Shown here: in pieces, positions 10,852 through 62,544 of the stretch
Layout: each line of letters begins with the position of its first letter
How positions within the stretch are numbered: the first letter of the stretch is position 1
From: Candidatus Obscuribacterales bacterium
Lineage (GTDB): Bacteria > Cyanobacteriota > Vampirovibrionia > Obscuribacterales > Obscuribacteraceae
Assembly (NCBI GenBank): GCA_965228855.1
Contig: CBDDIJ010000002.1
Span: 256,001 to 320,000, forward strand
Length of the DNA stretch: 64,000 bases
Direction: 5' to 3'
Position numbers and translations under genes: made by a program
The notes under the pieces: model-generated
Databases searched by the model: none
What the model was told of the DNA's origin: nothing
Seen by the model: only the letters and a program-made list of their open reading frames with translations

Positions 10852-10885
10852 AAGAGCGTCATCGCAACCCAGCGATGGCGCTCTT
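10852..10885 (+). terminator. Terminator-like hairpin
   Basis: AAGAGCGTCATCGC / GCGATGGCGCTCTT inverted repeat after the stop at 10835. Confidence 0.7.
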
Positions 10886-10902
10886 CGCCTTTCCACTTCA
10901 GT

Positions 10903-11202
10903 CTACTAGATCATACAGGATTCACAGAACCCGAAAACACAAGCCCAGAGAGGGTATTCGGCATGTCAGGTTCTACCGCGGTTAGATTTGTCTACGTGAC
11001 GATGCCACTTTTCGGAGATTCCGTCGCTCTCAGATAGCCAGGACTCACGGCCTACTACAGTGCTTGTCTACGCCACGATGCCACTTTTCGGAGAATCCGT
11101 CGCTCTCAGATAGCCAAATCAAAGTACCCGTTCGACGGCATGTCCCAAAACCGCCTACCTGAGGCAACTTCCGACGATAGCTTGTCCTATATTTGCTAGT
11201 AG
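10903..11202. repeat. Composite site 1: box B, twin-A x2, inverted box B
   Basis: CTACTAGATCATACAGGA at 10903; 52-bp elements at 10989 and 11065; TCCTATATTTGCTAGTAG ending at 11202; offsets 86 and 86 bp. Confidence 0.88.
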
Positions 11203-11223
11203 GTAGCCTGGGTGGACAAATCG

Positions 11224-11276
11224 GGGTGAGGACAGGCGCTTGGTTGCCGAAGCAGCCTTGCGCCTGTACCTCACCC
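11224..11276 (-). terminator. Long terminator-like hairpin
   Basis: GGGTGAGGACAGGCGC / GCGCCTGTACCTCACCC downstream of the patatin stop codon. Confidence 0.7.
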
Positions 11277-11294
11277 GTCTCCTAAGTATCTTCA

Positions 11295-12290
11295 TCAGCT
11301 CAGCCCCTGCGAGCCCATGAAGCCGCGGACAAGAGCCACCAACTGACCGAAATCAGCACAGTGGCTCAGCGGGTTCAAACCTTCCTGGAACGCATGGCTG
11401 TGCGCGCTCAGTTCGATGACTGCAGCGTTGAAGCCAGCCAACAGCCCCGCCACTTTCTGACCTTCGGTGAGCCGAAAGCGCATGGCGTGGACTTCGGCAA
11501 CGTGTGCGTTGATGTTGATGTCGGCCTTGCCGTCGTCCGCCAGTTCGATCCGGTCGGAGTCATGGCAGAGAAGCTTGCGGCCGACACGGCACAGGAAGTT
11601 GTTTTTGCGCGAATCTTTGCCGGTAGACGCGACTCGCACAATGGTACCCTGGGCGCCCATGAAGTGCTGCTGAACCACAGATGCGGGACAGCCACCCAAC
11701 GGGCTCAGAGCACCGTCGAACAGGAACCGGCCCATATAAGGAACAGCTTCCAGCAGGCCGGGAATCGCGCACGTTGCCCTGATTGCCAGCGACAGCGGAG
11801 CAGGCTCCTCAGACAGCACGTTGTAGCTGCCGTCGAAACCGTACTCGAACACGCCGGAGGCAGTGAACAGGATATGCGAATTCTCGGTGAGAGCCATCGT
11901 CCAGAAGGACTCCGGCCACTCTTTCACCTGCGCATCGATCAGTTCGCCCAGCCCATCCGTGTGACGCATGCCGCGACGCAGCAGGCGAGCGATGAACTTG
12001 TGAGCGACGCTGCGCTTGCCGTCGAGTTCGGTGGCGAACGAACGCAGAGGTCCGGTGTCACCGCTGGCGGGGCGCAACAGTTTGAGGAAATCGAGAGCCA
12101 TGGTGGTCTCGATGATACGAAGCGGATCGGCGTTGTCAGCCAGGAGCAGTGCCGGGATAGCACCGCCGCTGATACCACCAATCGAGCTCCAGCTTTTCAG
12201 ACCAGCGAGCTTGATGGCGAGCGTAGCGCCCAACCCGGTGAGGATTGCGCGCGACCCGCCCTGCTCGATGACGAGATGACGGTTATTCAT
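11295..12290 (-). CDS. Patatin-like phospholipase
   Basis: QGGSRA glycine loop, GISGG nucleophile motif, AIRATCAIPG, FDGA. Confidence 0.88.
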   Translation of the reverse strand: MNNRHLVIEQGGSRAILTGLGATLAIKLAGLKSWSSIGGISGGAIPALLLADNADPLRIIETTMALDFLKLLRPASGDTGPLRSFATELDGKRSVAHKFIARLLRRGMRHTDGLGELIDAQVKEWPESFWTMALTENSHILFTASGVFEYGFDGSYNVLSEEPAPLSLAIRATCAIPGLLEAVPYMGRFLFDGALSPLGGCPASVVQQHFMGAQGTIVRVASTGKDSRKNNFLCRVGRKLLCHDSDRIELADDGKADININAHVAEVHAMRFRLTEGQKVAGLLAGFNAAVIELSAHSHAFQEGLNPLSHCADFGQLVALVRGFMGSQGLS

Positions 12291-12524
12291 AATGTCCTCC
12301 TAAGACTATCGCCGACCAACAGCAGTCGACGAAGAAGCGAACCCGCGCAGGCGCCGTGAGTCCGCTTGGACATCACGACTGCGTCAGCCCGGGGCGAACG
12401 TTCGCTTGCGCTTTCGGCGGAAGCGATATCGTCCTGAGAAAAGTAGGTGCATGCGGTTCCTTTCAAACAGTTGCGTTCCTCGGGTGAAACACCGGCGATT
12501 GCTCGCCGATGTTTCTGTTTAATC

Positions 12525-13433
12525 TCAGTCCTTCATCTCAATCACGCGCGTCGAACCCGGACCGAAACCCAGGAACGCGATCATTGCGAAGAAGACGCCG
12601 AAGATAACCCAGCAGATGCCGGTGATGGATTCACGCGTGGTTTTGGTTTCCCACATCATGTTTCCGCGGGTCTGCTGGTAGATCATCGAAAGAGCGGACT
12701 GGACGCCCTTCGCATCGCTCGCCTGGAACAATGCGAACGGCGAGTCGCCGAGCTGCTCGACGAAGTCGCGGATGAAACGACCTTCTGCCGGTGCTTTGGC
12801 GGCGGCGTTGCCGACCTCGACGAGGAAGACCTCGACGTGCAGTCGGGCGAGTTCCGCGGCAATCTTGGTGGGCTGGTCGAAGTACATGATGCCCTCACCG
12901 TCGGTGAAGACCACGAGCACTCGCTGTTCCGAACCACCCGCTGCGCGAAACTGTTCGAGCGCCGAGGCGAAGCCCGGATCGAACCGACCGACGCCGTAGT
13001 CGAACGGCAGCTTGGTCGCGTCTGCAGGCAGTTTGGCACCACCCGCCGAAATCGGCGCGATGATCCTTGCGGTTTCACCGAAAAGCGTCAGGCCGTATCC
13101 GGCTTCAGGACGCCCTGCGGAGAAATCACGAAGACCTTGAACTGCGAGTTCGGCGCGCGTGGGCAGGCCGCTAGCTGCGCGCTGCGACATCGAACCGGAC
13201 TCGTCCACGAGAGCGACGATGTTGACCGGCTGCGGCACGCGCACGTTCTCATGATTCACGACGTATGGTTGCGCCAGGGCAAAGACCAGCGCGGTACCGA
13301 GGATGCTGACCATGAGCGGCCACATCGAGACCACGCGCGAGCGTCGAGTCGAGTAGTCGGAACGGGTCGGAATGAGCATCAGGACGAAAAACACGAGGCA
13401 CGCGAAGAAATATTCCGGATGAATGGCTTGCAT
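12525..13433 (-). CDS. Membrane-anchored von Willebrand factor A domain protein
   Basis: LVDESGSM MIDAS motif, VVFTDG; two N-terminal and one C-terminal TM segments. Confidence 0.85.
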   Translation of the reverse strand: MQAIHPEYFFACLVFFVLMLIPTRSDYSTRRSRVVSMWPLMVSILGTALVFALAQPYVVNHENVRVPQPVNIVALVDESGSMSQRAASGLPTRAELAVQGLRDFSAGRPEAGYGLTLFGETARIIAPISAGGAKLPADATKLPFDYGVGRFDPGFASALEQFRAAGGSEQRVLVVFTDGEGIMYFDQPTKIAAELARLHVEVFLVEVGNAAAKAPAEGRFIRDFVEQLGDSPFALFQASDAKGVQSALSMIYQQTRGNMMWETKTTRESITGICWVIFGVFFAMIAFLGFGPGSTRVIEMKD

Positions 13434-13567
13434 GGTACGGTTCCTCTCGAACTTAACCACGAGTGATCTTATCGACCGCATCCAGCAGTCGAAGGCGAAA
13501 TGCAAAGGTGGCACCGGCAAGCAAGAATGCCTGCCGGCGCCGAAATTGACAGTTCAGTTCGCCGGCA

Positions 13568-13747
13568 TCAGCCGCCGAACAACCAGCTGAGCACGCCGAT
13601 TGCGATTCCGAGGAACCCGATCAGGGTCAGGGCATTGGCGAGATTGAACAGCGCCTTGTTGCGCATGCCGTCAGCCGCCTGAGCGACGAACAACGACACG
13701 ACCATCATGACGACGCCGACAACCGTGATCCATCCGATGATGGTCAT
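13568..13747 (-). CDS. Small two-TM membrane protein (59 aa, below the ORF track cutoff)
   Basis: Manual translation MTIIGWITVVGVVMMVVSLFVAQAADGMRNKALFNLANALTLIGFLGIAIGVLSWLFGG; AAGG upstream. Confidence 0.7.
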   Translation of the reverse strand: MTIIGWITVVGVVMMVVSLFVAQAADGMRNKALFNLANALTLIGFLGIAIGVLSWLFGG

Positions 13748-13883
13748 GGTTTGAAACCTTTTGGACCGCTGAAAACAGCCTCACCAGCTCGCGGTCCGGA
13801 GCCGATGAGAGCAGCGGGCTGAAGAAACGGCGACGGCAACGTTCCCGAGTCACCTCGAGGCAACGCCACCGCCGCCGACACCA

Positions 13884-14141
13884 TCAGTCGTAGCTGAACC
13901 AGTACGCCTCCATCACCCTGAGCACTTCCGCGGTCACAGGGAACTCAGGCGTGGACGGGATGACGGAGTCTATGCCGCACTTGGCGCACACAGCTGTGGT
14001 TCCGCGGTCCGTCCATTCCTTTATCTCATGTGGCGCGTAGATCTCCAGGCAGTGGAAGCAGCCGCAGGTCGCAGCCTTGTTGAGCTCCTCGCGGTTGTGT
14101 GTGCACCGCGCATGAGCAGCCTTCTGGTCGAATTGATGCAT
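13884..14141 (-). CDS. Small Cys-rich putative zinc-binding protein
   Basis: CGCFHC...WTD...TAVCAKCGIDSVI pattern. Confidence 0.8.
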   Translation of the reverse strand: MHQFDQKAAHARCTHNREELNKAATCGCFHCLEIYAPHEIKEWTDRGTTAVCAKCGIDSVIPSTPEFPVTAEVLRVMEAYWFSYD

Positions 14142-14462
14142 GTTCTTGGTCCCTGGTCAGTCCATCAACAGCGCGCCTGACGACAGCCGAAGCCATCGCC
14201 TGACCTCACACGGTCGCACACAAGCGGCTTCAGTTCGGAGAACCTGAACCGCCTGTGGTGGCGCACCTGATGGCGAAAAGTGACCGACCTAACTGCTATC
14301 GATTCGCATGGCTCTCCTTTCTTGAGAGTTGATGTCGGATACCGCTCACCCTTTCCGACTGAAACCGCGAACGCACTCGCGAGAATGCGGACGCGGCGCC
14401 GGATGCAGCTGAGCGGTCACCCGGCTACAGGCAGCACAAGGCTGCGTGTAGCCTGACGGCCT

Positions 14463-14810
14463 TCAACGGCAGTCGTAGCGGTAGCCGACGAAGCGGTCCC
14501 AACGGTCGTAGATCGGGATGCGGACCTGCGTGCAGGGGCGCTGGTAGCGCGGCTGCGAACGCTGATAGCGCGGGTAGTCGCGCTGGTAGTGACGCTCGTT
14601 CTCGAAGGTCTGCTGGTCGCCGATCAGCCCACCGCCGATGGCGCCGATGGCAGCACCGGCAGCAGCACCGCCGACGTCGCCGGTTGCGGCACCGCCGATG
14701 ATGGCACCGCCGATGGCACCGATCGTACCGTACTGCTGGCCGAGGGGAGTGGCGCAGCCGCCGAGGAACAGAACGGACAGCAGGGAGAGGGAGACGAGGA
14801 TTTTACGCAT
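14463..14810 (-). CDS. Glycine-zipper lipoprotein
   Basis: Signal peptide with LGGC lipobox; GAIGGAIIGG...GAAAGAAIGAIGG glycine zipper. Confidence 0.85.
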   Translation of the reverse strand: MRKILVSLSLLSVLFLGGCATPLGQQYGTIGAIGGAIIGGAATGDVGGAAAGAAIGAIGGGLIGDQQTFENERHYQRDYPRYQRSQPRYQRPCTQVRIPIYDRWDRFVGYRYDCR

Positions 14811-15057
14811 GATTGCTCCAGACCCGAAAAGGGTCGATGTGGTTGTGGGAAATTTGAGTCCGAACTTGAGTCCGGACAACTGTTCCGCCACGTCAGTATC
14901 AACGTCGCGGATAAACACCGAACAGCAGGAACTGCTCGGTTCGAAACGAGCGCCCGAAGACGCTCGCTCCGAGATCAGCTTGCAGGCAGTTTTCCGAGCT
15001 CCGAAAAGGAGCAGCGAAACTTACCGTGCAAGCGGTTTCACTTCAGGCGATGGCGCC

Positions 15058-15693: not shown

Positions 15694-15833
15694 TGCAATT
15701 CTCCTGATGGAAGTTGGGAGTGACGCGCACAGCACCGCAGATGGTGCCCGAAGCGCCAGATGGATTTCACACGCCGTCCGCTGCAAACTCTGACGAGAAA
15801 GCTACAAAGCGGCGAAACGAGAACGAACGGACG

Positions 15834-20892: not shown

Positions 20893-20900
20893 GAATCCGC

Positions 20901-21085
20901 CTACTATATCCCGGCGTATCTACTGTCAAGAGGGCGCAACGTTTCGGGACTCAGCCAGCTTACTATATTCCGGCGTATTTACTTTCAAGCGGGTGCAGCG
21001 TTTCGGGACTTTCATATGAATAAGAAGCGCCTGTGTCTACGACTCATTGCCGGATTTTCGCAATTCCGTCTATGCCTCGTAGACA
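20901..21085. repeat. Composite site 2: box B x2 (59-bp duplication), twin-A
   Basis: CTACTATATCCCGGCGTA at 20901, TTACTATATTCCGGCGTA at 20960, 52-bp element 21034-21085 (offset 74). Confidence 0.88.
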
Positions 21086-22737: not shown

Positions 22738-22789
22738 TGTCAATCCCACAGCGACGATTTTGGCGAATTCCGTCGCTCTCTCATTGACA
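22738..22789. repeat. Site 3: twin-A element with no clear box B
   Basis: T-GTCAA-tcccaca-GCGAC-gattttggcgaattcc-GTCGC-tctctca-TTGAC-A. Confidence 0.8.
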
Positions 22790-24103: not shown

Positions 24104-24151
24104 TTCGCACCGCGGTTTTTGTTCAACAGACTCAACCTCATGGAGGTTTCA

Positions 24152-25348
24152 TTGAATCCAATCTTGCGAAGATATCTGGGCGGCGCAGCGTTTGTCGTCG
24201 CCGCTCTGGTCGCCGGCGGCATCTGGCTCGCCACCACCGACAGTACCGAACTCGGCATGACCGATTTCCCGATCGGCACGGACGTGCGCCTGGAAGTCGC
24301 GAAGGACGCCGAGATTCGCACCGTCGAACTCTACGCCGATCGCGTCACAGCCAAGCATTCCGTCGCCACCCTCAGCGACGGTAGCATCACGAACTACTGG
24401 TACCGCGCCGACGGCACGCTCGAGAAAGCGGTCACTGAAGGTCCGCCCGATGCCGCCGGCGTCCGCATGGTGAAGCGGCAAGCAGAGGTCGCGCCGGACG
24501 GTTTCACCTACCTGTACGACGTCGAGTATCTCGCCGACGGCAGCAAGTCGAAAGAGACGAAGTTCGAGCAAGGCAAGTTGCTGCGCTCGTACTTCCACGC
24601 CAATGGCATCGCCCGGCGCGTGCAGGTGATCGTCGCCGAGAAGAAGGGCTGGCGGCTGACTCAGGAGGACTTGTATCGTCCGGACACGTCGCTTGTGGAA
24701 AGCGTGCGATACGGCGACAACGACTCCTGGGAACGCAAGTTCTTCAACGAGCAGAACGTGCTCCTGAGTTCGAAGGCGATGGGTGCCTACGGCACGCGGT
24801 ACACCGAGGTGGAGTACTATCCGGACGGCGTCACCAGACAGCGCATGGTGGAGCAGAACGGGCAGGGCACCAAGCTCACGACCTACCGAACCAACGGCGC
24901 GAGGGACCAGGAGCGCGTCTTTAGCGGTCCGGTCACAGGCTCGAACCTGGTCGTCACGGCTTACGACTCGCACGACCGCTTGAGCTTCCAGCAGTGGTGG
25001 TCGTTCGGCGAGAGCGGCTATTACATGTGGCAGCTCAAAACCTTCCGCGAGAACGGCTCGATGGCGAAGTCCGTCTACTTCGAGAAAAACAGCAAGGGCG
25101 CCACAGAGGTCGTCTTCAAGGGCGACGGTGCCTACCACAGCGACTTCACTCGCCGAAAGTTCCGGAACGAGGACGGCAAGCTCGAACTCGAAGAAGACGA
25201 GGTCAAGAACAAGGTGGTGGCCACTCGGCATTTCTCGCCCGAGCGCAACATCAAGCTTCAGCTGCCGAAAGAACAGCTGGAGCTCAAGGACGTGTCGCCC
25301 CTGCCGCGGCAAGTCATCGAATACGCGCCCGCACCGATGGGCCGATAA
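24152..25348 (+). CDS. Membrane-anchored MORN-like (YwqK-type) beta-hairpin repeat protein, paralog 1
   Basis: GGAGG RBS and TTG start; N-terminal TM; repeated Y/F-x-x-D/N-G units (YRADGTL, YLADGS, FHANG, YYPDG). Confidence 0.8.
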   Translation: MNPILRRYLGGAAFVVAALVAGGIWLATTDSTELGMTDFPIGTDVRLEVAKDAEIRTVELYADRVTAKHSVATLSDGSITNYWYRADGTLEKAVTEGPPDAAGVRMVKRQAEVAPDGFTYLYDVEYLADGSKSKETKFEQGKLLRSYFHANGIARRVQVIVAEKKGWRLTQEDLYRPDTSLVESVRYGDNDSWERKFFNEQNVLLSSKAMGAYGTRYTEVEYYPDGVTRQRMVEQNGQGTKLTTYRTNGARDQERVFSGPVTGSNLVVTAYDSHDRLSFQQWWSFGESGYYMWQLKTFRENGSMAKSVYFEKNSKGATEVVFKGDGAYHSDFTRRKFRNEDGKLELEEDEVKNKVVATRHFSPERNIKLQLPKEQLELKDVSPLPRQVIEYAPAPMGR

Positions 25349-25444
25349 CCGGGATCGACAGTGACGCACAGCCCGCCTGACAAACAGACGAAGCTGCGCG
25401 TCACGTCTCCTCTAACGCAACCTCTGGAATCGAAGGAGGACTCG

Positions 25445-26632
25445 ATGAACAATCGTCTTCTCTCCGTACTGGGCATTGCGGCTCTGTCGATAGCGGCAGC
25501 CGCCGTGTCCATCTATGCCACCAGCAGCAATACCGCACTGGAGAACGGAGCCTTCCCGGCCACCACTCCCGTGCGCGCAGAACTGCATCTGAGCGAAACG
25601 ATTCGTTCGGTGGAATTCTATCCGGACGGTATCACTCCCCGACAGGGTGTCGCGGAGAACAACGACGGCTCGAAGACGACCTTCAGCTACCGGGCTGACG
25701 GCACGCTCGAAAAGGTCGTCACCATGGGCGTCGCCGACGCCAACGGTATCCGCGCCACACTGCGCTACGCCGAAATCGCAGCGGACGGTCAGACCTACGC
25801 GTACGACGTCGAATGGACTTCAGACGGCAGCAAGCGCAAGGAGACCCGGCTCGTCAACGATGCGACCACCGAGCGCAGCTACTTCTACGCCGACGGCAAT
25901 GTTCGTAAGTCGCAGGTGATCGCGCTCGACAGCAAAGGCTGGAAGCTCGTCACCGAGGACGTCTATCGCGAAGACCGTACGCTCGCCCACACGCTCCGGT
26001 CCGGCAAATACGACGCCTTCGAGTCGACCGACTATGCGGCCGACGGTGTCCGTGCTGTTTTCGTGAAGAAGTTCACTCCCGGTCAGTACGTCGAGCTCAC
26101 TTTCGCCGACGACGGGGTGACCAGGCTCCGTGAAGTGATGCAGCGGTCGGACGGAACGACCATCACCGTTCGTCGACTGGACGGCACCACGGCGGAGAAG
26201 CGCCAATGGACGAGTGCTGTCAATCAGGGCTCGATGGTGGTCGAAGTCATGAACGACGCCGGCAAGCTCACCTACGACAACTGGTGGACCTGGAAGGACA
26301 ACAAATACACCCTCTGGTCTTACCGCGAATACCGCGCCGACGGCACGAACTCGCGGCAAATCATCTTCGCGAGCGACGGCAAAACCGTTGAGACTGAGCT
26401 CGTCTACGACGGCGACGGACGCTTCGGTACCGACAACTTCCTGCGCCGCAAGTACCGTCCCGACGGCACACTTGCGACCGAGGAGGTGGTCGTGAAATAC
26501 AAGACCGTCAGCACCGTCGAATTTACGGTCGCTGACGACAAGCGAATCGCCCTCGACGCGAGTCGTCTCGTCGACAGCGAATACACGGCACCGCCCACGG
26601 TGGTACCGTACACGCCGCCGAGCGGGCCCTGA
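25445..26632 (+). CDS. Membrane-anchored MORN-like repeat protein, paralog 2
   Basis: AAGGAGG RBS; colinear with paralogs 1 and 3 (RSVEFY, YRADGTLE, KGWKL). Confidence 0.82.
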   Translation: MNNRLLSVLGIAALSIAAAAVSIYATSSNTALENGAFPATTPVRAELHLSETIRSVEFYPDGITPRQGVAENNDGSKTTFSYRADGTLEKVVTMGVADANGIRATLRYAEIAADGQTYAYDVEWTSDGSKRKETRLVNDATTERSYFYADGNVRKSQVIALDSKGWKLVTEDVYREDRTLAHTLRSGKYDAFESTDYAADGVRAVFVKKFTPGQYVELTFADDGVTRLREVMQRSDGTTITVRRLDGTTAEKRQWTSAVNQGSMVVEVMNDAGKLTYDNWWTWKDNKYTLWSYREYRADGTNSRQIIFASDGKTVETELVYDGDGRFGTDNFLRRKYRPDGTLATEEVVVKYKTVSTVEFTVADDKRIALDASRLVDSEYTAPPTVVPYTPPSGP

Positions 26633-26727
26633 GAGACCTGCTCACCTAGCTCCTCCCCCGGCTCCGGTGTGTTTCTAGAAAACAGCGACCGCCGGAGCCA
26701 CATTCACGTAAGACGAAAGGAAATTCG

Positions 26728-27192
26728 ATGTACACATTTCTCGCCGTTATCGCCGTGACGCTCGTCCTCCAGATTGCCGAGGTCTTCTTCGGTGCACCGC
26801 CCATGGTGCAGAAGGCTTTCAACCGAGCGGACCGCATTCGCCAATATGGACGGGGGCGCGCCTATTTCTCGCTCCTGGTCCTCTATCCGCTGGCTCTCAC
26901 CGCCGCCTTCTACGCACTCGGAACCCTCGCCGGTGTCGTGGTCGGCTACGCAGATGCCTGGGCGGATGTGGGCACATTCTTCATGCTCATCATCTTCCTC
27001 GGCATCATGGGCTGCTTCTTCGCCTTCCTGCGAGACCTCGGCTCGCTCGTCGCGAGCAAGATCACCGGCAAGGAACGCGCCAGCACCGACGATGTGCGGC
27101 TGCTGACGACCGTCGTCTTCACGAGCGGCATGTACGGTTCTCTCGTCGCCGTCGCGCTGAAGACCGCCGGCATCGTCACCTTCGGTCACTGA
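26728..27192 (+). CDS. Four-TM membrane protein
   Basis: AAAGGA RBS; four hydrophobic segments. Confidence 0.78.
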   Translation: MYTFLAVIAVTLVLQIAEVFFGAPPMVQKAFNRADRIRQYGRGRAYFSLLVLYPLALTAAFYALGTLAGVVVGYADAWADVGTFFMLIIFLGIMGCFFAFLRDLGSLVASKITGKERASTDDVRLLTTVVFTSGMYGSLVAVALKTAGIVTFGH

Positions 27193-27401
27193 CCATCAAC
27201 GGCGCGCTCTCACGGTAACCAAACCGCGCCGCGCCCATGACCTCTGAACGCCAGCCTTGCGGGACTGGCGTTGCGGATCAGGCGTGATGCTGGCGCTCCA
27301 CTTTGCGGGCGTCTTCGCCAATTAGCACTGGCGGTTCGACTAACTGCGGGGACGCCATGCGGCGCCCCCGTCCGTGGCAACCAAACCTTCGGGATCACCG
27401 A

Positions 27402-27977
27402 ATGATCACTTTACACATCGTGGCGAGCCTCGCGTTCGCAACCCTGCTGTATTCTCTGTCCGAGTACGTGATTCATCGCTGGCTCATGCACCGCATGCGC
27501 CTGGCGAATCTCGCGGACAGCAACACGATGCGCGAGCTGGTGCGCAACCACATGGGCAAGCACCACAAGCGCGACTACCACCACGAGACTCACGAAGAAG
27601 ACGACAAGCTCTGGCAGGTCCAGATCTTCGCGCTGATTCCGGTCACGTTCGTCGAAATCGCCTTGCTGTTCGTCGACCCGCTCACTTGCGGCGTGGTCTT
27701 CGTTTTCGGCATGGCGTACGCTTCTTTCTGGTGGGTCGTGCATCTCGAGATGCATCGCGCCGAAGGACGCTTCTTCTCTCGAACGGCGCTGTTCAAGCAC
27801 CTCGAGTTGCGTCACCAGTACCACCATGAGTTTCCGAACACGAACTTCAACGTCATCCTGCCGTTCGGAGACTGGCTGTTCGGCTCGACGCCGACCGCAA
27901 GCCAGCGCGCCAAGTTGGCAGCTGGAGAGCGCCGCAAGACTGCAAACAGACCGAAGACGGTCTCAGAAGCAGCCTGA
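27402..27977 (+). CDS. Fatty acid hydroxylase / sterol desaturase family protein
   Basis: His boxes EYVIHRWLMH, HMGKHH, HLEMH, HQYHH and NFNV...DWLFG. Confidence 0.85.
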   Translation: MITLHIVASLAFATLLYSLSEYVIHRWLMHRMRLANLADSNTMRELVRNHMGKHHKRDYHHETHEEDDKLWQVQIFALIPVTFVEIALLFVDPLTCGVVFVFGMAYASFWWVVHLEMHRAEGRFFSRTALFKHLELRHQYHHEFPNTNFNVILPFGDWLFGSTPTASQRAKLAAGERRKTANRPKTVSEAA

Positions 27978-28144
27978 GCGGCCCAATGTACACGGGACGC
28001 TACGGGGTCTCCGACGCGTTGACCACGAGTGAATGACGCACTCGCAAACTTGCCGGAGACGTCTCGATTGAGCAGGGGCAAACTTGCTCGATCGAGGCTT
28101 CGTCCCGACTTCAGCAACTTCCACCAAACCCGATGGAGGATAAA

Positions 28145-29356
28145 ATGTGGAATCGCTTTTCCGGGTTGAAGAAATCGACCCAGATTGTAATTCTCGCGGC
28201 GGCAGCTGTTTCGCTCAGCACCATCGCGCTCACCGGCGGCTACTATGCCACCAGAACCGATACCATCGACAACGTCGACCTGTACCCGGAGAAACTCCCC
28301 GTCCAGGCGCAGCTCCACGACGGAGAGACACTCCGCAACGTCGAGTTCTATGAGGACGCCATCACGCCGAAGCGTGCCGTCGCCTACAACAACGACGGCA
28401 CCCAGACCGAGTTCCACTATCGCGAGAACGGCACGCTGGAAACGGCGCAAACCGTTCGACTGAGCGAAGGCGGCGCCCGCACGATCCTGCGCAGCGCGGT
28501 GCTGGCCGACGACGGCGTCACCTACAAGCACGATGTCGAATACTTCGATGACGGCGTCCGGATTCGCAAGGAGCTCATCCTGGCGGACAACGAGACGCAG
28601 AACCGCAAGTATTTCTTCGAGAACGGCAACGTCTTCGAAGACCAGGTCATCAAGCTCGACCGGAAGGGCTGGAAGCTCGCCACCGAGTCCGAGTACCGGG
28701 CCGACAAATCGCTTGCGAGCACCTACGTCGCCACCGAAAACGACGGCTGGGACCGCAAGTACTTCGACGAGACCGGCGTGCTCACGATGTCGAAGTCGGT
28801 GCATACCTGGGCTTCTTTCTACACGGAAGTCACGTACGCGAACGGCGTCGTGCCGATTCGCACGGTGGAACAGAAGGGCTCGAGCACCACGGTCACCCTG
28901 CGGCGCGTCGATGGAACGAAGTCCGAGGTTCGCGTCTGGTACGGACCTCTGGTCAAGGCGATGATGGTCGTCACCTACTTCGACGAACAGGAACGCAAGA
29001 CCTTCTACCAGTCCTACATGTCGGACGACGACGGCAAGCCCGTGCTCAGCTCAATCACCATCTACGACAGAAACGGTGACGATGCCCGTACGGTCTACTA
29101 TGAGAGCGACGGCGAGATCAACGAAACGCTCTATACCTTCGGCGACAAGTCGAAGTGGATGCGTCGACTGTATCGCGACGACAAGACGCTCAAGCAGGAA
29201 ATTGACATGGAGATGGGCAAGGGTCAAGTCGGCACCAGGGAGTTCGAGGCTGAGGACAACATCAAGTTCGAAATCCCCGAGCAATATGTGGTCCTGCAGC
29301 CCTACACCACTCCGGAACAGGTGATCGAGTATCACCCGGACTACAACGGTCACTGA
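28145..29356 (+). CDS. Membrane-anchored MORN-like repeat protein, paralog 3
   Basis: GGAGG RBS; RNVEFY, YRENGTLE, KGWKL, C-terminal QVIEY shared with paralog 1. Confidence 0.82.
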   Translation: MWNRFSGLKKSTQIVILAAAAVSLSTIALTGGYYATRTDTIDNVDLYPEKLPVQAQLHDGETLRNVEFYEDAITPKRAVAYNNDGTQTEFHYRENGTLETAQTVRLSEGGARTILRSAVLADDGVTYKHDVEYFDDGVRIRKELILADNETQNRKYFFENGNVFEDQVIKLDRKGWKLATESEYRADKSLASTYVATENDGWDRKYFDETGVLTMSKSVHTWASFYTEVTYANGVVPIRTVEQKGSSTTVTLRRVDGTKSEVRVWYGPLVKAMMVVTYFDEQERKTFYQSYMSDDDGKPVLSSITIYDRNGDDARTVYYESDGEINETLYTFGDKSKWMRRLYRDDKTLKQEIDMEMGKGQVGTREFEAEDNIKFEIPEQYVVLQPYTTPEQVIEYHPDYNGH

Positions 29357-29429: not shown

Positions 29430-29728
29430 CTACTATATACCGAAGTATTAATTCCTTCGACAAAGCAGCACCCACAGGCAATCTGGAGACTCAGGTAACT
29501 TTCTCAGAATAAATTTGTCTATCGTACGATGCCGGAATTTCCAAATTTCGGCATTCCTGCGTAGACATGACCCCGGTTGTCCACGAGATTTAGAAAGCCA
29601 CCGTCAATGAGAGTGCGACGGAATTCGCCAAAACTGTCGCTCTCTCATTGCCAAAACCTGATCTTTGAATTAGAAAGATGCCGGAACGCCTCACCAGTTC
29701 ACAAAATCCTTCCTAGATGTTTTAGTAG
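29430..29728. repeat. Composite site 4: box B, twin-A x2, inverted box B
   Basis: CTACTATATACCGAAGTA at 29430; 52-bp elements at 29516 and 29602; TCCTAGATGTTTTAGTAG ending at 29728; offsets 86 and 75; hairpins on both flanks. Confidence 0.88.
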
Positions 29729-32270: not shown

Positions 32271-33017
32271 ATGCCACTCTTAAGCGTGCTGGCCCTCGCG
32301 ACCAGCCTGCTCCTGGGTTCGTACTTCGCTCAGCGTCGTATGCCCAAACGCGCCCAGAGCCTCATTCTCGCGCTTTCTTTTCTCACCGGCGCAGCAATCG
32401 CCGTTAATGGCGAGATTCCGTTCGGCTGCCTGATCGCAGCCTCGGGACTCGCTTTTCTCCTCGGCACAATCTGGCGTTCCAACTCAGGTATCGATCCGAA
32501 GGCACGCCCGGAGTACCGTTTCTGTCCCAGTTGCGCCCACAAGCTCGAGCAGCGCGACTTCGAGGGCAAAGCCAAACTTGCCTGCCCGAGCTGCTCTTTC
32601 GTTTATTGGAACAATCCCATAGTCGTCGGAGTTACGCTCGTTCCCTCCGAGGACGGCGATAGCGTCCTCCTCGTCAAACGCGGCGTTGCACCAAAGAAGG
32701 GCTTCTGGTGCCTGCCTGGAGGCTTCGGAGAACCGAACGAACATCCCAAGGAAACCGCCGGCCGCGAAACCGGCGAGGAAGCCACGCTCGATGTCGAAAT
32801 CGACCGTCTCCTTGCTGTCCATGCGGCTCCAGGCTCCAACCAGGCGCTCATCTTCTATCTCGCCAAACCGACGAATGTAAAACCGCAACCCGGCAGCGAC
32901 GCTCTCGAAACGCGCTACTTCCGGCTCGACGACCTGCCTGCCGACATCGCGTTTTCCACTCACCTCGATGTAATCACCGAGTGGAAGAAAGCCTGGCTCG
33001 CACGCAAGTCGGCATAA
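32271..33017 (+). CDS. NUDIX hydrolase with zinc ribbon and N-terminal TM segments
   Basis: FCPSC...CPSC zinc ribbon, NP, Nudix box GGFGEPNEHPKETAGRETGEEA, AFSTH. Confidence 0.9.
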   Translation: MPLLSVLALATSLLLGSYFAQRRMPKRAQSLILALSFLTGAAIAVNGEIPFGCLIAASGLAFLLGTIWRSNSGIDPKARPEYRFCPSCAHKLEQRDFEGKAKLACPSCSFVYWNNPIVVGVTLVPSEDGDSVLLVKRGVAPKKGFWCLPGGFGEPNEHPKETAGRETGEEATLDVEIDRLLAVHAAPGSNQALIFYLAKPTNVKPQPGSDALETRYFRLDDLPADIAFSTHLDVITEWKKAWLARKSA

Positions 33018-33041
33018 ACCGCGGCTTTAGCCAGACTTTGA

Positions 33042-33090
33042 AAGAAGGACCGCAAAACCTGAGGGTGAGCGGTCCTTCTTTTCTTCTTCT
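33042..33090 (+). terminator. Intrinsic terminator
   Basis: AAGAAGGACCGC / GCGGTCCTTCTT stem followed by a T-rich tract. Confidence 0.7.
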
Positions 33091-33122
33091 CAACCGCTGC
33101 TATTTCCCTTCCTTCCCAATCG

Positions 33123-33371
33123 CTACTATATTTTCTCGTACCTCTCGAGCGCTCAAAAGGCACGGATAGCAACACGTTCGAGGATTCAAACACACACAGC
33201 GGCTCTCACTGTCTATGACAGAATGACGAATTTCCGAAAAACCGTCTACGAGCCGTAGACAAACCCAGCCACCTGATCGAACACCAGCGCGTCAGGAAGT
33301 CCGTAAACCGCAAGCTGGCAAGCCTTCCGCCCGCTAGGACATCCCTCCAGAGAAACTAAATCCTAAAGTAG
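33123..33371. repeat. Composite site 5: box B, twin-A, degenerate inverted box B
   Basis: CTACTATATTTTCTCGTA at 33123; 52-bp element 33210-33261; AACTAAATCCTAAAGTAG ending at 33371; offsets 87 and 110. Confidence 0.82.
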
Positions 33372-33775
33372 CAAGTTTGTTAGCGCCAGGTACGCTAGCC
33401 CGGAGCGCTTGAAATCTCTATCACCAGCAGCAATGAAACTCCACTCATAGTGGGATCAGGGCGTCTCTAAAAGCAGGCAGCAAGCGGTTTTTCGCATAAG
33501 AAGAATTAGATGAATTTCTGGTTATAAGCTAGAAAGGTCTGTTTACACTACGCGGGAAAGTTTCGAATCAGAGCGCGCGATTTAATAACCTCAACTCGTT
33601 CCCCCTTATCCCCGAGCTTCAGGTACGTCCCCCACCAAGCCCGGTTCCTCAAAAACAGCTGCAAGTCTTTTCCAGAGAGCGCGAGCTTTCCGGTTGGACA
33701 CGCGTCTATCCAGAGCAAGTGGAGACGCACTGCCGCTGTTTGGTTCACCACAACTCAGTCTGAGGAGATTCACGA

Positions 33776-34207
33776 ATGAAATCCGATTTCTCACGACCCG
33801 AGGGCGTCGAAGAAGACGATAGCGACTTCACATCGATGCTCGAGTACATCCAGCAGGGCGACGAGCAGATGGCGAATCGCGAATTCAGCGATGCCGAAAG
33901 CTCCTACAACGAGGCTCTCTCTGCGGCGTTCGGCTTCTACGGTGCCACCAGTGCGACCGTCCTGCCGCTCGTCCTCAAGCTCGCCGATGCCCAGCTGGCG
34001 GACTGCCAGGACGAAGACCACTTCTCCGACCTGACTCGCACCCTGCAACGCGCACTCGCCGTTGCATCGCTCAAGCACGGTCCGGAGAGCAAGGAGCTCA
34101 TCCCGATCATCGAGAAGCTGATCGCGGTTTACGACCTGCAGGGTGCGCATATGCTCAGCGGCGAACTGCTTCAGCGCCTGCAGGTGCTCAACGAAGTCCA
34201 AGGCTAG
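33776..34207 (+). CDS. Small TPR-like helical protein, paralog 1
   Basis: GAGGAG RBS; TPR-like helices; C-terminal YDLQGAHML. Confidence 0.8.
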   Translation: MKSDFSRPEGVEEDDSDFTSMLEYIQQGDEQMANREFSDAESSYNEALSAAFGFYGATSATVLPLVLKLADAQLADCQDEDHFSDLTRTLQRALAVASLKHGPESKELIPIIEKLIAVYDLQGAHMLSGELLQRLQVLNEVQG

Positions 34208-38516: not shown

Positions 38517-38798
38517 CTACTATAGAAGACAGTCCATGCGAAGTCCACAGAGCTTTGAATAGACAGCATTTAGAGGAGCTCCCCTGCAAAACCGGTAAAG
38601 TTTGTCTACGCTTGTATGACGCAATTGCCAAATTCCGTCGCTCTCAGATAGCCAAACCCACCGTTTTCAATTCCTCGCAAATATTGAATCCACCAAAAAC
38701 CGCTGCCTATAACGATCCGAACAAAACACCGATACCATCGCATCTAGTAGTATCGCTGTCGACCCGAACAAAAACGCAGATACCATCGCATCTAGTAG
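38517..38798. repeat. Composite site 6: box B, twin-A, inverted box B x2 (48-bp duplication)
   Basis: CTACTATAGAAGACAGTC at 38517; 52-bp element 38603-38654; TACCATCGCATCTAGTAG ending at 38750 and 38798; offsets 86 and 96. Confidence 0.88.
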
Positions 38799-44800: not shown

Positions 44801-44950
44801 CTACTATATTCCAGCGTACTCCGCGACACCCCCAGATCCTTCTACAGCACGGCTCTCCGAGACTTACGCTTATGAAACCAACACCAGAAATTGCGATTTG
44901 GCTATCACTCGTTGCCGGATTGACAGAAATCCGGCAACGACTCATAGACA
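44801..44950. repeat. Composite site 8: box B, twin-A
   Basis: CTACTATATTCCAGCGTA at 44801; 52-bp element 44899-44950; offset 98. Confidence 0.85.
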
Positions 44951-47564: not shown

Positions 47565-47733
47565 CTACTATATTCCGGCGTATTGAAAACCCTCCTACTA
47601 TATTCCAGCGTATTCAAAAATCACGCAGAATCCCGACTCCAGCTGCATTTAACCAGCGGACCTCTAAACGTTGACCCGATTTGTCTACGCTACGATGCCG
47701 GAATTTCGAAAATCCGTCTACGCACCATAGACA
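47565..47733. repeat. Composite site 9: box B x2 (30-bp duplication), twin-A
   Basis: CTACTATATTCC(G/A)GCGTA at 47565 and 47595; 52-bp element 47682-47733; offset 87. Confidence 0.9.
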
Positions 47734-49267: not shown

Positions 49268-49857
49268 CTACTATGTCATCTAATGATTCCCTGGACCGTC
49301 CCAGCCCAGGCCTGTTAGGTTTCCAGGATCAGCGCTAATTCAGCCCTCCATTTTGTCTATCGTAGAATGCCGGATTTCGCGAAAAGCGGCATTCCAGGAG
49401 CGACAAATCGCCATTCAAGGCATCCACTGACATCAACAGCCAAGGTCAAACAAGTACGCCTGTATGGCTTTGGGGGCTCCTCAAAGTACTTCCTTCTATA
49501 GTAAATAGGGGACTGATTCAGCCCTCCATTTTGTCTATCGTAGAATGCCGGATTTCGCGAAAAGCGGCATTCCAGCAGCGACAAATCGCCTTTCAAGGCA
49601 TCCACTGACATCAACGACAAAGGTCAAATAAGTGCGCCTGTAAGGCATTTCGGACTTCTCCAAAATACTGCCTTTTATAGTAGACAAGGACATTCAGCAC
49701 TCCATTTTGTCTATCGTAGAATGCCGGATTTCGCGAAAAGCGGCATTCCAGGAGCGACAAATCGCCATTCGAGCATCCACTGACATCAACAGCCAAGGTC
49801 AAACAAGTACGCCTGTAAGGCATTTCGGATTTGACGAGATACTCTCTTCTATAGTAG
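49268..49857. repeat. Composite site 10: box B followed by three tandem 176-178 bp units, each twin-A plus inverted box B
   Basis: CTACTATG at 49268; units start at 49338, 49516, 49692; twin-A at 49354, 49532, 49708; TATAGTA(A/G) ending at 49504, 49683, 49857. Confidence 0.92.
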
Positions 49858-49871
49858 CAAAATTTTAGAAA

Positions 49872-56397: not shown

Positions 56398-56463
56398 AAT
56401 TGCGTACTCCAAAAGGAAGCGGAGCCCGGCTTCTGATGCCGAGCTCCGCCTGATGAAACGCGC

Positions 56464-58585: not shown

Positions 58586-59053
58586 ATGTCACTCAATCAC
58601 CATCTTCAGATTTTCAGAACCAACTCGCTAATTAATCACGTTAGCGCCCTCGTGCTGACTACAGGAACGGCGTTATTCGTTTCTGGCTGCTCGGCCTCGG
58701 ACAAAACTGCCACAGCAAATGACGCCGAAATTCTGAACGACGCAAACGCATATCATGCAATCTATGACTCGAAAAAACCTGTTCTCGTCGAATTCTGCGC
58801 CCCCTGGGCTGAAAGCTCAAAACAAACGGCGCCGATAATGAGCGATCTTGCAGCCGAATTTACCGACGTGCGTTTTGTGCGCGTAGACACTGACAAAGCG
58901 CCGCAGACCATGCAGATGTTCGAGATTGAAACTGTTCCAACCTTCATTCTAGTAAGCAAGAAATGCAAGCACGGAAAACAACTGACCGGTGTTCATACCA
59001 AAAGCGAACTGGCAGCATTCATCAGCGAAAGCTACGCTGAGTGCCACGATTGA
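58586..59053 (+). CDS. Thioredoxin-fold lipoprotein lacking CxxC
   Basis: VSGC lipobox; KPVLVEFCAPWAESSK, FVRVDTD, VPTF. Confidence 0.82.
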   Translation: MSLNHHLQIFRTNSLINHVSALVLTTGTALFVSGCSASDKTATANDAEILNDANAYHAIYDSKKPVLVEFCAPWAESSKQTAPIMSDLAAEFTDVRFVRVDTDKAPQTMQMFEIETVPTFILVSKKCKHGKQLTGVHTKSELAAFISESYAECHD

Positions 59054-59075
59054 TTGTGCGCCGTTTATCGATCAA

Positions 59076-60455
59076 TTAACGCGAAGATGCGACGTTGCCT
59101 TTGAGGATATGTTCACGCGCCTCACCGACCACGTAAATAGATCCGGTAACTACGATAACTTCGCCTTCCTTAGCCACTTTGCGCGCTTCATCAATGGCCT
59201 CGGCAACACTGTTTGAAACATGAACATCAGCATCAGCGGCACCGAATGTGGTGACAACTTCTGCAATGTCCGAAGGATTCATTGAGCGCGGATTTTTCGA
59301 TCGAGTCGCTATACAGAGGCTGCTCATGCTCTCTAGCTGTTTCCAAATCGCACTCATGTTCTTGTCCATGTTCAAACCAAGAACAAAGATGCACGACTTC
59401 ACGTCGAAGAACTGCTTGATTGCATCAGCCAGAGCCTGAGCCGACTCGTGATTATGAGCGGCGTCAACGACTATGATTGGCTCTCCGTTCTTCTTGCCGT
59501 CTTTGAAGCCACTGAGTATCTGCAGTCGTCCGGGAACAACCGCTTTCTCGAGTCCCTTCCTGATGTGCTCATCGGTAATATTCACGCCTTCTTTCCGCAA
59601 CGCCAATGCAGCGGCAGCGGCTGTAGATGCGTTGCTCACCTGGTGAGAGCCAAGCATGGGCGTAAACAACTCGAGCGAACCAAACTCTTTTGATTCGAGC
59701 GAGAACGTCTGCCCGGTTATGTCTTGCTTCTCAGTGCGGATTTTGTACTCGCGCGCAACGTCTATAAGCGTCGCCTGCACCTCGCCACAACGACGACCGA
59801 CAGCCGTTCTTGCGCCCTGGTCTTTCTGCGGAGCGAGCACGGCGATACACTTCGGCGTGATGATTCCAGCTTTGTTCGCCGCGATTTCGGTTGGCGTCGA
59901 GCCCAATATCTCAACGTGTTCGAGACTGATAGGCGTGATCACAGCAACATCTTTGGTAGCAAATACGTTAGTGACGTCATACCGTCCGCCGAGACCAACC
60001 TCGACTACCTGCCAGTCGATCGGCGGGTTGCTGTTTTTGGCCAGATGAAAGAATAATGCGGTGAGGACGCCAAAAGTTGAGATATTGTTGTTTCCAGCAG
60101 ATTTCTCAGCTTCGATAATCGGTTTGATCTCCGCGACGCCTTTGGCAAAACGCTCAGGGTCGACATTTTTGCCGCCGAACGCAATGCGCTCGCAGTAGTC
60201 GTGCAGGTGTGGGCTGGTATATAGCGCAGTATTCAAACCGGCTTCGTTCAGAATGTGAGCAATCATCGTGCTCGTACTGCCCTTGCCTTTGGAACCGGCG
60301 ACGTGCACCGTGTGGCGACCAAGTTGCGGATTCTCCATACGCTCCAACAGCGCCCGCATCGACGGCAAACCCATCGTCGGACCGCGCGCGCCGAACGTGG
60401 CTCTTTCCATGTCTGGAAATTGTTGGATGTACGCTATGGCTTCCGCATAATTCAT
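59076..60455 (-). CDS. folC: Folylpolyglutamate synthase / dihydrofolate synthase
   Basis: HVAGSKGKGST, YTSPHL, EVGLGGRYD.TN, KAGII, PGR, DAAHN, TGSIY. Confidence 0.96.
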   Translation of the reverse strand: MNYAEAIAYIQQFPDMERATFGARGPTMGLPSMRALLERMENPQLGRHTVHVAGSKGKGSTSTMIAHILNEAGLNTALYTSPHLHDYCERIAFGGKNVDPERFAKGVAEIKPIIEAEKSAGNNNISTFGVLTALFFHLAKNSNPPIDWQVVEVGLGGRYDVTNVFATKDVAVITPISLEHVEILGSTPTEIAANKAGIITPKCIAVLAPQKDQGARTAVGRRCGEVQATLIDVAREYKIRTEKQDITGQTFSLESKEFGSLELFTPMLGSHQVSNASTAAAAALALRKEGVNITDEHIRKGLEKAVVPGRLQILSGFKDGKKNGEPIIVVDAAHNHESAQALADAIKQFFDVKSCIFVLGLNMDKNMSAIWKQLESMSSLCIATRSKNPRSMNPSDIAEVVTTFGAADADVHVSNSVAEAIDEARKVAKEGEVIVVTGSIYVVGEAREHILKGNVASSR

Positions 60456-60696
60456 AAGATTTATTGCCTGCGCGCTTCGTTTTTGACGTTTCCGCTTGAA
60501 AACAAAGTGCGAACTTTTCTAGGTTACTGGTGCTTTTTAGACCCTAAGCACCCACATTGAGGAATACTCTCCGACAACTAAACCGTATTTCGTTGTCCAT
60601 TTCAAGCCTTTTCAAGCCTTGTCAGGTGGCATTCTTCCAGCCCCGGCGCAAGGCGGTCTTCGCACGCCCAATCCACTAACACTCGAGAACCAGAAT

Positions 60697-61914
60697 ATGA
60701 GCTCATTGCGCTCCATTTTGGGTGCCATCGGCACTCTGTTTTCTGGCGCCGTTCATAACCGGCGTTTGGCGGCCTCCAGGCTCGACGGACTCGGTGAGTC
60801 CAAAATCCGGGCCGGCGCGACGAAAATCACGAGCGATTTCGAAATCGTCGACCTCGCCTCCGGTGCTCCCGCATTCAGCACTCCTGAAGAACTCAAAACG
60901 AAAGCGGTGGAAGCCATTCTGGGCAACCACAATCAATACTCTGACCCGGCCGGCGATCGAGAACTGCGCCAGCTCATCGCTGCCCAGACCGGTCGCACAA
61001 TCAACGAAGTCACCATCACATCCGGCACTTCGGCTGCTCTGGCCGGCGTGCTCCTGGCGCTGGTTGAGAAAGGCGATGAGGTTATCGTCTTCGCGCCGTT
61101 CTTCGAGAGCTACTCCAGCGCGATTCGCCTGGCGGGAGCGACGCCGCGCTACGTCAACCTGGTCACGCCGGACTGGACGCTCGATGAAGCGGCGCTGCGG
61201 GCAGTTTTCAGCAAGCGCACCCGCGCCGTGATCGTCAACTCCCCGCACAATCCGACCGGGCGCGTGTTCAGCAAAGCGGAGTTGGAATTGGTGGCGCGGC
61301 TCTGCGAGGAGCACGATTGCTTACTGATCAGCGACGAGATCTACTCGAAGCTGACGTTCGATTCACCGACTCACGCGGCCCCGTCCCTTGCGGAAACGGT
61401 ATGGAACCGCGGTCGCAACATCATCATTGATGGGCTCTCCAAGGCTTACAACGCAACAGGCTGGCGAGTCGGTTACGTGATCGCGCCGGCGCCTGTTTCA
61501 GAACAGTTTCGCATTGTCCACTCAATCATGGGACTGTCCGCGCCTACGCCTCTTCAAATCGCTGCCCGCGGCGCGTTCGACCCGGCCGTGAATTGCGCTC
61601 TGACTGAAACCGTTTTCGCCTGTCGCGAGGCACGAGACCTGCTCTGCAATGCCTTGCAAACCGCTGGGTTCAAGCTGCGAGTTCCGGAAGGCGCGACCTA
61701 CGTTTTTGCTGACGCCACGCATCTGGGCGCCGCGAACTTGGACGACGCCCGAGACCTGCTGATCAGCCGCACCGGCGTCAAGTCCGTTTCCGGCTCCTGC
61801 TTCTTCGATGAAGCCGCACCCGCCGCCGGACAATGGCTGCGCTTCTGCTTCGCGCGCGACCTCGCGCTAATTCAGATAGCGGCTCAACGCCTGCAACTCC
61901 TGCATGCGCGCTAG
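60697..61914 (+). CDS. PLP-dependent class I/II aminotransferase
   Basis: NSPHNPTG, SDEIY, LSKAYNATGWRVGY, LRFCFA. Confidence 0.93.
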   Translation: MSSLRSILGAIGTLFSGAVHNRRLAASRLDGLGESKIRAGATKITSDFEIVDLASGAPAFSTPEELKTKAVEAILGNHNQYSDPAGDRELRQLIAAQTGRTINEVTITSGTSAALAGVLLALVEKGDEVIVFAPFFESYSSAIRLAGATPRYVNLVTPDWTLDEAALRAVFSKRTRAVIVNSPHNPTGRVFSKAELELVARLCEEHDCLLISDEIYSKLTFDSPTHAAPSLAETVWNRGRNIIIDGLSKAYNATGWRVGYVIAPAPVSEQFRIVHSIMGLSAPTPLQIAARGAFDPAVNCALTETVFACREARDLLCNALQTAGFKLRVPEGATYVFADATHLGAANLDDARDLLISRTGVKSVSGSCFFDEAAPAAGQWLRFCFARDLALIQIAAQRLQLLHAR

Positions 61915-61926
61915 GCCCGAAACTGC

Positions 61927-61962
61927 GAACAGGCGACTTCCCACCAGGGATTTCGCCTGTTC
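61927..61962 (+). terminator. Terminator-like hairpin
   Basis: GAACAGGCGA / TCGCCTGTTC. Confidence 0.7.
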
Positions 61963-61977
61963 CTCCTCCAGATCTGT

Positions 61978-62544
61978 CTACTATAAGTTTTGGTATTACT
62001 CCATTTCGCCCGAAGCCCACCCCAGCATAGCTTTCAAGGCTTGCATAGCATCGAGCCCTCCTGAATTTTTCCGATTTGTCTACGACTCGTTGACGGATCT
62101 CGCGAATTCCGGCAACGAGGCGTAGACAACGTCCTTCGCTCTGAGCCCGAAGTCATCCGAACAGATGCTCCGATCAAAACGCTGCAAATTTGATTGCAGG
62201 TTTCGAACAAAATGCTGCAAACCAATTTGCAGGTCCTTTCGCTCTGAGCCCGAAGTCATCCGAACAGGTGCTCCGATCAAGACGCTGCAAATTTGATTGC
62301 AGGTTTCGAACAAAATGCTGCAAACCAATTTGCAGGTCCTTCGTTCTGAGCCCGAAGTCCTCCGAACAGGATACGATCAATCGACTAATTCGGCTGTCTA
62401 CGCCAGAGCGACGGAATTCGCGAGATCCGTCAACGAGTCGTAGACAAAGCCGCTATTGGGGAGCCGGAAAGATGCAAACAAGGTCCGTAGAACCGCCGGT
62501 CACGAGGCATTCGGGGGACAGCGACAAACTGTCTTGTATAGTAG
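61978..62544. repeat. Composite site 11: box B, twin-A, 102-103 bp tandem repeat, inverted twin-A, inverted box B
   Basis: CTACTATAAGTTTTGGTA at 61978; 52-bp elements 62077-62128 and 62395-62446; tandem units at 62131, 62233, 62336; AACTGTCTTGTATAGTAG ending at 62544; offsets 99 and 98. Confidence 0.92.

Follow-up and report, generated by a model that had tools for sequence, protein, structure and literature searches.

We report that a 64,000-nucleotide stretch of DNA from Candidatus Obscuribacterales bacterium (genome G000; the window, G000:C2:256001-320000) carries copies of a paired palindromic element, here termed twin-A, which is dispersed over the genome and appears to belong with a family of proteins combining a phospholipase D (PLD) domain with a helix-turn-helix (HTH) domain. 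We propose an enzyme-linked repeat system, in which the PLD-HTH protein would bind twin-A and cut and rejoin DNA nearby, so that sites are copied and amplified. The probability of this reading is roughly 0.5. Judging from the pairing of genes and sites, binding of the twin boxes by the PLD-HTH protein is highly probable; catalytic spreading of the twins by the same protein, which would both cut and spread them, stands at about even odds.

Structure and phasing of the sites

Twin-A measures 52 bp and consists of two 19-bp palindromic boxes (TGTCTA-N7-WTGACG type) placed 33 bp apart, and 14 bp of AT-rich sequence form the centre between them. A weight matrix trained on 15 window copies and then run genome-wide identified 210 twin-A sites, with the score range 16-30 almost empty, and found none in block-shuffled C2, which served as the control. 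The recurring multi-part site noticed in a first-pass annotation of the window is therefore real. Cross-centre complementarity was modestly above expectation, and the DNA fold z score had a median of -3.3 (range -7 to -0.3). No Rfam match at gathering score was found in the window.

At 236 of 420 twin-A flanks, a second motif, CTACTA, lies 70-115 bp away. This motif, box B, had been described as TACTA-N7-TAGTA. The symmetry is present, but conservation is strongly asymmetric, with CTACTATA conserved and a weak right half. In 142 of 210 cases, a hairpin precedes box B, which is always directed away from the gene. At the ends of transcription units with high GC content at third codon positions (high-GC3 units; genes and GC3 classes are gene calls made in this analysis), it occurs in the sense direction in 38% and in the antisense direction in 0% (n=240). 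It flanks twin-A on both sides at only 62 of the 210 sites and stands beside none of 19 twins of the TGTCAA subtype. Box B was also considered as a sigma-70 -10 box and rejected, since the -35 position is not conserved; no motif was found upstream of high-GC3 units.

The distances between the two elements are phased. All 14 offsets listed earlier (nine left and five right) proved exact, including those of the box B variants TTACTA at 20960 and CTACTT at 33371, and the reported stepping of about 11-12 bp was reproduced genome-wide. In the 210 arms whose spacers are distinct, the offsets have maxima at 75, 85-88, 96-100 and 107-110 bp, only 1 of 210 falls in the troughs, and the best period is 11.6-11.7 bp (R 0.76 versus 0.20 at the 99.9th percentile of the null). 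The same peaks were observed in a third strain from a metagenome. Distinct sequences make up 210 of the 244 spacers between box B and twin-A. The arms, said to differ between loci, are indeed largely unrelated and carry a weak CCC.AAA...GGG.TTT pattern, yet 24 of 236 have distant paralogues. Because in vivo LacI loops have been fitted at 11.60 bp per turn (PMC1762422), a step of this size would fit a small supercoiled loop, and the phasing is consistent with DNA looping. Twin-A appears to be the primary recognised element, and the earlier suggestion of a protein-bound multi-part site is supported.

Linkage to PLD-HTH genes

Listing the content between facing twin-A sites yielded a 257-aa gene (C2:103074-103847), which is located outside the window and flanked by twin-A on both sides. 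Its product combines a PLD domain of the single-HKD type with an invariant CxxC and an HTH whose closest counterpart is that of HipB, a protein described as binding 18-bp palindromic operators (TATCC-N8-GGATA) in pairs (PMC3376134). The structure model (predicted local distance difference test, pLDDT, 87.5) matches the folds of PLD3, Zucchini, NucT and Nuc, and also that of TrmBL2. The catalytic HxK is kept in 34 of 35 homologues and the full HxKx4D...GSxN motif in 138 of 153 proteins. Five PLD-HTH genes are present in G000, all inside a domain around the replication origin (see below). At E 1e-30, the family was detected in 42 of 104 genomes of Obscuribacteraceae, about 12 of which are partial matches to long proteins, and in none of 300 genomes from the rest of the phylum, in each of which 8 candidates were scored; representatives at 1e-30 numbered 304. 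ESM Atlas at 0.9 gave no match, and NCBIfam and PADLOC returned HipB, DrmC and MkoC, all sub-threshold or partial.

The association between gene and twin was measured at 32 homologue loci, five of which had framed the hypothesis and some of which are related and not independent. A twin palindrome (score at least 28, box spacing 32-34 bp) was present at 16 of the 32 loci, compared with 1 of the 32 when control spacings were used and with 4.7% among 150 control genes; beyond the five framing loci, the eleven other positive loci come from other genera or relatives. Each homologue's twin has its own sequence in the same geometry, and sister proteins carry related half-sites (TGTCTA/TGTCAA, ATGTGC/ATGTGA and TACCAG/TTACCG). 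A frequent position of the twins is 170-350 bp upstream of the gene, but they also occur downstream, on both sides and in tandem arrays.

Several families illustrate this pairing. In the sister genome G007 (about 95% identical to G000), the gene at C3:64655 is flanked on both sides by its cognate repeats. G007 has a 54%-identical paralogue, absent from G000, that is flanked by TGTCAA arrays. TGTCAA copies number 52 in G007 versus 10 in G000 (13 orthologous loci), and those of the TGTCTA type 111 versus 92. Another family, twin-C, has 46 copies in G000, two of them in the window, and the PLD-HTH paralogue at C2:1042759 also has this motif upstream. The G005 and G006 homologues are flanked by an ATGTG-N9-CACAT twin with CTACTA 54 bp off (75 bp at the G002 copy), and this twin occurs 5, 6 and 1 times in G005, G006 and G002, respectively. 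G013 contains 60 copies of its twin, four of them just upstream of its PLD-HTH gene, whereas G112 and G119 have 4 copies of their own twin each. The twin of G016 reads TATTCC-N6-GGAATA. Another two-copy twin-like motif (C2:1001966 and 1002150) was seen upstream of the PLD-HTH paralogue at 1002534.

Range across genomes

Among 61 genomes, the strict twin-A pattern was found 133 times in G000, 114 times in G007 and once in G006. A scan of a genome collection identified 39 twin-A loci, of which 37 were titled Candidatus Obscuribacterales and two belonged to an Acidobacteria bin; these two share one contig, 93% identical to C2 and probably mis-binned. The third strain has sites at the same loci, and viral contigs contained no twin-A. 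Four relatives (G001, G002, G005 and G006) retain the window gene order with twin-A absent there, and the window segment was not found in the examined parts of G007. Within the genus, the exact box B pattern exceeded its control only in G000 and G007. However, B-like words were enriched in 233 kb of DNA from these relatives (24 versus 7.6 in shuffles), and box B is probably older than twin-A. Because under a stricter test only 1 of the 47 ends of high-GC3 units in relatives had box B, against that 24-versus-7.6 enrichment, this ancestry is likely rather than settled.

Site dynamics and rearrangement

The sites behave as hot spots of rearrangement, as had been anticipated. Between G000 and G007, 41 of 69 alignment breaks were within 300 bp of a site, whereas such zones represent 23% of intergenic bases; among gene-sized breaks, 16 of 28 were at sites, several of them IS110 insertions. 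Arms diverged by 12% versus a 5% background, with an ordinary substitution spectrum, and the 10 bp outside box B were the most variable (mismatches 18%, 24 gap openings in 40 pairs). Tandem periods clustered at 73, 145-146 and 156-157 bp. Distant paralogous copies share either one arm plus twin-A (B to twin) or the stretch from B to B, and end there; an entire unit was copied B to B (C2:1120499 and C5:1318273). In a contig of a biofilter strain, 7 of 8 breaks listed across 19.8 kb were at sites, as duplications or replacements. Tandem linkers had 7-8 nt in 17 of 35 cases and matched neither flank; therefore, no fixed crossover or cut position could be defined. All 7 IS110 copies, from two families, interrupt a twin-A box in its right half.

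Proposed mechanism and alternatives

Two PLD-HTH dimers would bind the two twin-A boxes on one helical face and, in the genus of G000, could loop to box B at 75, 86, 98 or 109 bp. Box B would be an older motif just downstream of the terminators of high-GC3 transcription units, and looping to it would explain why copies settle at the ends of such units around the origin. The paired PLD domains may then nick near the outer edge of box B or of twin-A. BfiI, a PLD nuclease, is reported to cut via a covalent intermediate and to be able to transesterify (PMC2475615). Repair or transesterification could account for box conversion, for partial duplication of box B and arm and for the tandem units of 145-146 and 156-157 bp, and the same process might occasionally place a copy of an arm, or of a complete B-twinA-B unit, far away, amplification being a by-product or a selfish outcome. 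A more specific version, in which the PLD enzyme is a site-specific strand-transferase that works through a phosphohistidine intermediate and whose HipB-like dimers loop to the terminator-side box B, so that the unit is copied, is offered tentatively.

It should be noted that a number of observations weigh against this system. Half of the homologue loci (16 of 32) fall below the twin threshold, and the count includes the framing loci and non-independent kin. The G061 twin is single-copy, as expected of a plain operator, and G006 has one complete twin-A unit with a best homologue that is 35% identical. Since 284 genes of G000 lie within 500 bp of a site, flanking by twin-A is unspecific by itself in this genome. 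The 52-versus-10 contrast comes from a single genome pair, is anchored on G007 sites and may reflect assembly. No B-like word was found within 170 bp of 11 twins from other genera or relatives, so the box B step would be local to this genus. Finally, the tandem linkers define no cut position, and the fold search also returned TrmBL2, a non-cutting chromatin protein.

PLD-HTH proteins might instead bind twins without moving them, either as autorepressors or as TrmBL2-like organisers that loop twin-A to box B and insulate origin-domain units; the sites would then have spread by replication slippage and homologous conversion and been kept by selection. The often operator-like upstream position, the single-copy twin of G061 and the TrmBL2 match agree with this explanation, as do the high occupancy of convergent ends with a high-GC3 gene (51 of 68, versus 4 of 57 otherwise) and a phasing that is conserved although the arms change fast. 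We nevertheless consider it, although the main rival, rather unlikely, given a catalytic motif kept in 138 of 153 proteins, twins that also lie downstream, on both sides and in tandem arrays, and the restriction of twin-A to one cluster of 93-95% identity plus one G006 copy, whereas the gene domain is genus-wide.

The model of the first-pass annotation, in which box B is a recombinase crossover or tyrosine recombinase core, twin-A is its accessory site and gene blocks are swapped as cassettes, now appears improbable. The symmetry of box B, the enrichment of breaks at sites (including the 16 of 28 gene-sized ones, several due to IS110) and the B-like words older than twin-A (24 versus 7.6 in shuffles) would suit it, and two paralogous tyrosine-recombinase-like genes with altered catalytic motifs are present in the origin domain (C2:369775-370713 and 923144-924055). 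However, in both the first catalytic R is replaced by K and HxxRH by QxxRD, and similar-size matches occur in relatives without twin-A; the products of the two genes are candidates for non-catalytic binders of box B. Twin-A was inverted in none of 35 orthologous pairs despite inverted paired B boxes, and relatives without twin-A keep the gene order. Sequence changes fall outside box B and spare the 7-bp spacer in which the crossover had been placed. Likewise, the circular or inverted junctions expected at box B were not seen in contigs of three runs, which showed local duplications and replacements and no supported inversion or circle, although contigs drop rare forms. No serine recombinase was detected in G000 (PF00239 and PF07508, 0 each; genome 95% complete), where PF00589 had 17 matches whose orthology was not checked one by one. 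Among the soluble proteins of the domain, Pfam scans covered 140 of the 216 from high-GC3 genes and 112 of the 287 ordinary ones; together with those of 34 window proteins, these scans, which did not extend to DDE families, revealed no further recombinase or transposase.

Very improbable is that B-twinA-B represents a miniature inverted-repeat transposable element whose terminal repeats are box B and which a conventional transposase or the IS110 recombinases would move: the unit copied B to B and the seven IS110 copies in twin-A would fit, but box B is on both sides at 62 of 210 sites only, 210 of 244 spacers are distinct where a decayed element should leave homologous ones, IS110 interrupts the boxes in a parasite-like manner, twin families without box B have spread too, and no Y1 transposase was found (PF01797, 0 in G000 and G007; DDE families not searched).

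Two other enzymes were rejected as candidates. G000 encodes a retron-like reverse transcriptase with a C-terminal extension (C2:944459-945628), common to G007; relatives without twin-A have matches of comparable score, and substitutions in the arms show the same spectrum as the background. The candidate for an Ssn-type GIY-YIG nuclease is a short gene at C2:2134531, more than 100 kb from the nearest site.

Sites in the window

The sites of the window and the IS110 copies are shown in Table 1. In the unit starting at 29430, box B and twin are duplicated in another strain. The unit at 33123 has a paralogue at C2:96190, and the gap that holds it (33017-33776) is absent from three relatives, in which the two genes abut. 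At the unit starting at 38517, relatives keep B-like words and twin-A is absent. Window positions 24119-29356 encode three paralogous proteins of 407-423 aa with a membrane anchor at the N terminus; the one that was scanned had no Pfam match, and two further paralogues are located elsewhere in the domain. An 81-nt repeat, distinct from twin-A, occurs three times between genes at 3224-3538.

Table 1 Twin sites of the window (window positions) and IS110 copies of the genome (contig positions)
Feature	Position	Strand	Remark
Hairpin-flanked unit: B(+) 10903, twin-A 10989-11040, twin-A 11065-11116, B(-) ending 11202	10903..11202
Duplicated B (20901, 20960), twin-A 21034-21085	20901..21085	+
Twin-A of TGTCAA subtype	22738..22789		without box B
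B(+) 29430, twin-A 29516-29567, TGTCAA-like twin 29602-29653, B(-) ending 29728	29430..29728
B-twinA-B unit, twin-A 33210-33261	33123..33371		in 760-bp gap
B(+) 38517, twin-A 38603-38654, two B(-) ending 38750 and 38798	38517..38798
B 44801, twin-A 44899-44950	44801..44950	+
Duplicated B (47565, 47595), twin-A 47682-47733	47565..47733	+
B(+) 49268, then three tandem twinA-arm-B(-) units, twin-A 49354, 49532, 49708	49268..49857
B(+) 61978, twin-A 62077-62128, twin-A 62395-62446, B(-) ending 62544	61978..62544
Twin-C, two copies (62182-62232, 62285-62335) within 103-bp repeats	62182..62335		two CTGCAA-N6-TTGCAG boxes 33 bp apart
IS110 copies	C2:774849, 858710, 1120919, 197361, 988499; C5:861807, 1461566

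The origin domain and its gene class

Most twin-A sites (174 of 210) are located within C2:70-1125 kb, a 1.05-Mb region spanning dnaA (793 kb) and the GC-skew minimum. They lie in a sharply bounded origin domain (C2 about 0-1125 kb plus the adjoining C5 end), which is syntenic across the genus and to which genes with GC3 >0.7 are almost restricted; about half of its genes, a block of about 380, belong to this class, and almost none elsewhere. Twin-A marks the 3' ends of high-GC3 units: it was found at 21 of 28 convergent junctions between two high-GC3 genes, at 30 of 40 with one and at 4 of 57 with none. The scanned high-GC3 proteins were mostly peptidases, glycosidases, lipid and nucleotide enzymes and unknowns, and the domain is rich in peptidases, glycosidases, patatins and MoxR/vWA sets. 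The domain may stem from an old genome merger or reflect a separate expression programme. A high-GC3 sigma-70-family factor with regions 2, 3 and 4, adjoining twin-A at about 706.8-707.6 kb of C2, is a possible regulator of the high-GC3 genes. C4 (GC 0.29-0.66) and C2:1-60000 (0.63) depart far from the genome in GC content, possibly as contamination or islands, and an array of about 21 tRNA genes, many degenerate, was observed at C3:724518-727973.

Comparison with known systems

The fusion of an HTH with a PLD-fold domain recalls TrmBL2 and TrmB; here, however, the HTH is of another class, the catalytic motif is kept and the twin sites would be sequence-specific. The domain order of TrmB also differs from that of PLD-HTH. 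For TrmBL2 and TrmB, chromatin and repressor roles have been described (PMC3031468). BfiI and Nuc resemble the PLD-HTH protein in having a single-HKD domain with an intact motif, and BfiI too joins PLD to a DNA-binding domain; it differs in that its partner is a B3 domain rather than a HipB-like HTH with an invariant CxxC, and in that the family found here is linked to dispersed repeats. HipB and the C-protein XRE regulators provide the closest HTH structures and paired palindromic operators, comparable with the G016 twin, whereas here the HTH is fused to PLD, the boxes are 32-34 bp apart and the sites are dispersed in up to 210 copies. No HipA or restriction-modification partner was seen, although no search was aimed at such partners.

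The closest parallels are repeat systems with a dedicated enzyme. In the system of REP-associated tyrosine transposases (RAYT) and repetitive extragenic palindromes (REP), species-specific palindromes occur by the hundreds, the enzyme gene is flanked by its cognate repeat and repeat abundance is tied to the gene (PMC2817692); REP and bacterial interspersed mosaic elements are also targeted by IS110-family elements (PMC1525189). Similarly, twins are numerous, form composite arrays, are sequence-specific per lineage, flank the enzyme gene and are targeted by IS110. On the other hand, the enzyme here is PLD plus XRE-HTH and not a HUH Y1 transposase, and the repeat consists of two spaced palindromes with variable centres and a phased box B, probably not of a single hairpin. 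In Ssn-SRM (NTS/dRS3 and NIME arrays), a small nuclease gene is flanked by cognate repeats, boxes surround variable spacers and arrays turn over (PMC11893778, PMC1797815). The twins share all three features; however, Ssn is a GIY-YIG single-stranded DNA nuclease, whereas the SRM pattern was found in 1 of 210 sites here and the GIY-YIG gene is far off.

The system is probably undescribed: we found no description of Obscuribacterales repeats or of a PLD/HKD-HTH nuclease with repeats in the literature, in which subscription journals were scarcely covered. It also brings to light a 1-Mb origin domain that has a gene class and a 3' motif of its own, in an order of non-photosynthetic cyanobacteria that has received little study, and it defines a natural target for two IS110 families. 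Because more than 10 natural protein-site pairs share one geometry with different sequences, the binding code and the chemistry are directly testable. The PLD superfamily is not known for mobilising DNA, and the system would be of a categorically new kind should its PLD domain turn out to move DNA. If the strand-transferase version is true, it would represent a new chemical class of transposase or recombinase with a natural library of HTH-programmed specificities, by which the ends of an origin-centred high-GC3 block were colonised and are now remodelled. RAYT and Ssn are the known enzyme partners of bacterial extragenic repeats, and PLD-HTH would, if confirmed, be a third. Thus, the system works like RAYT-REP and Ssn-SRM yet lies outside both by their defining features, and its chemistry is unrelated to theirs.

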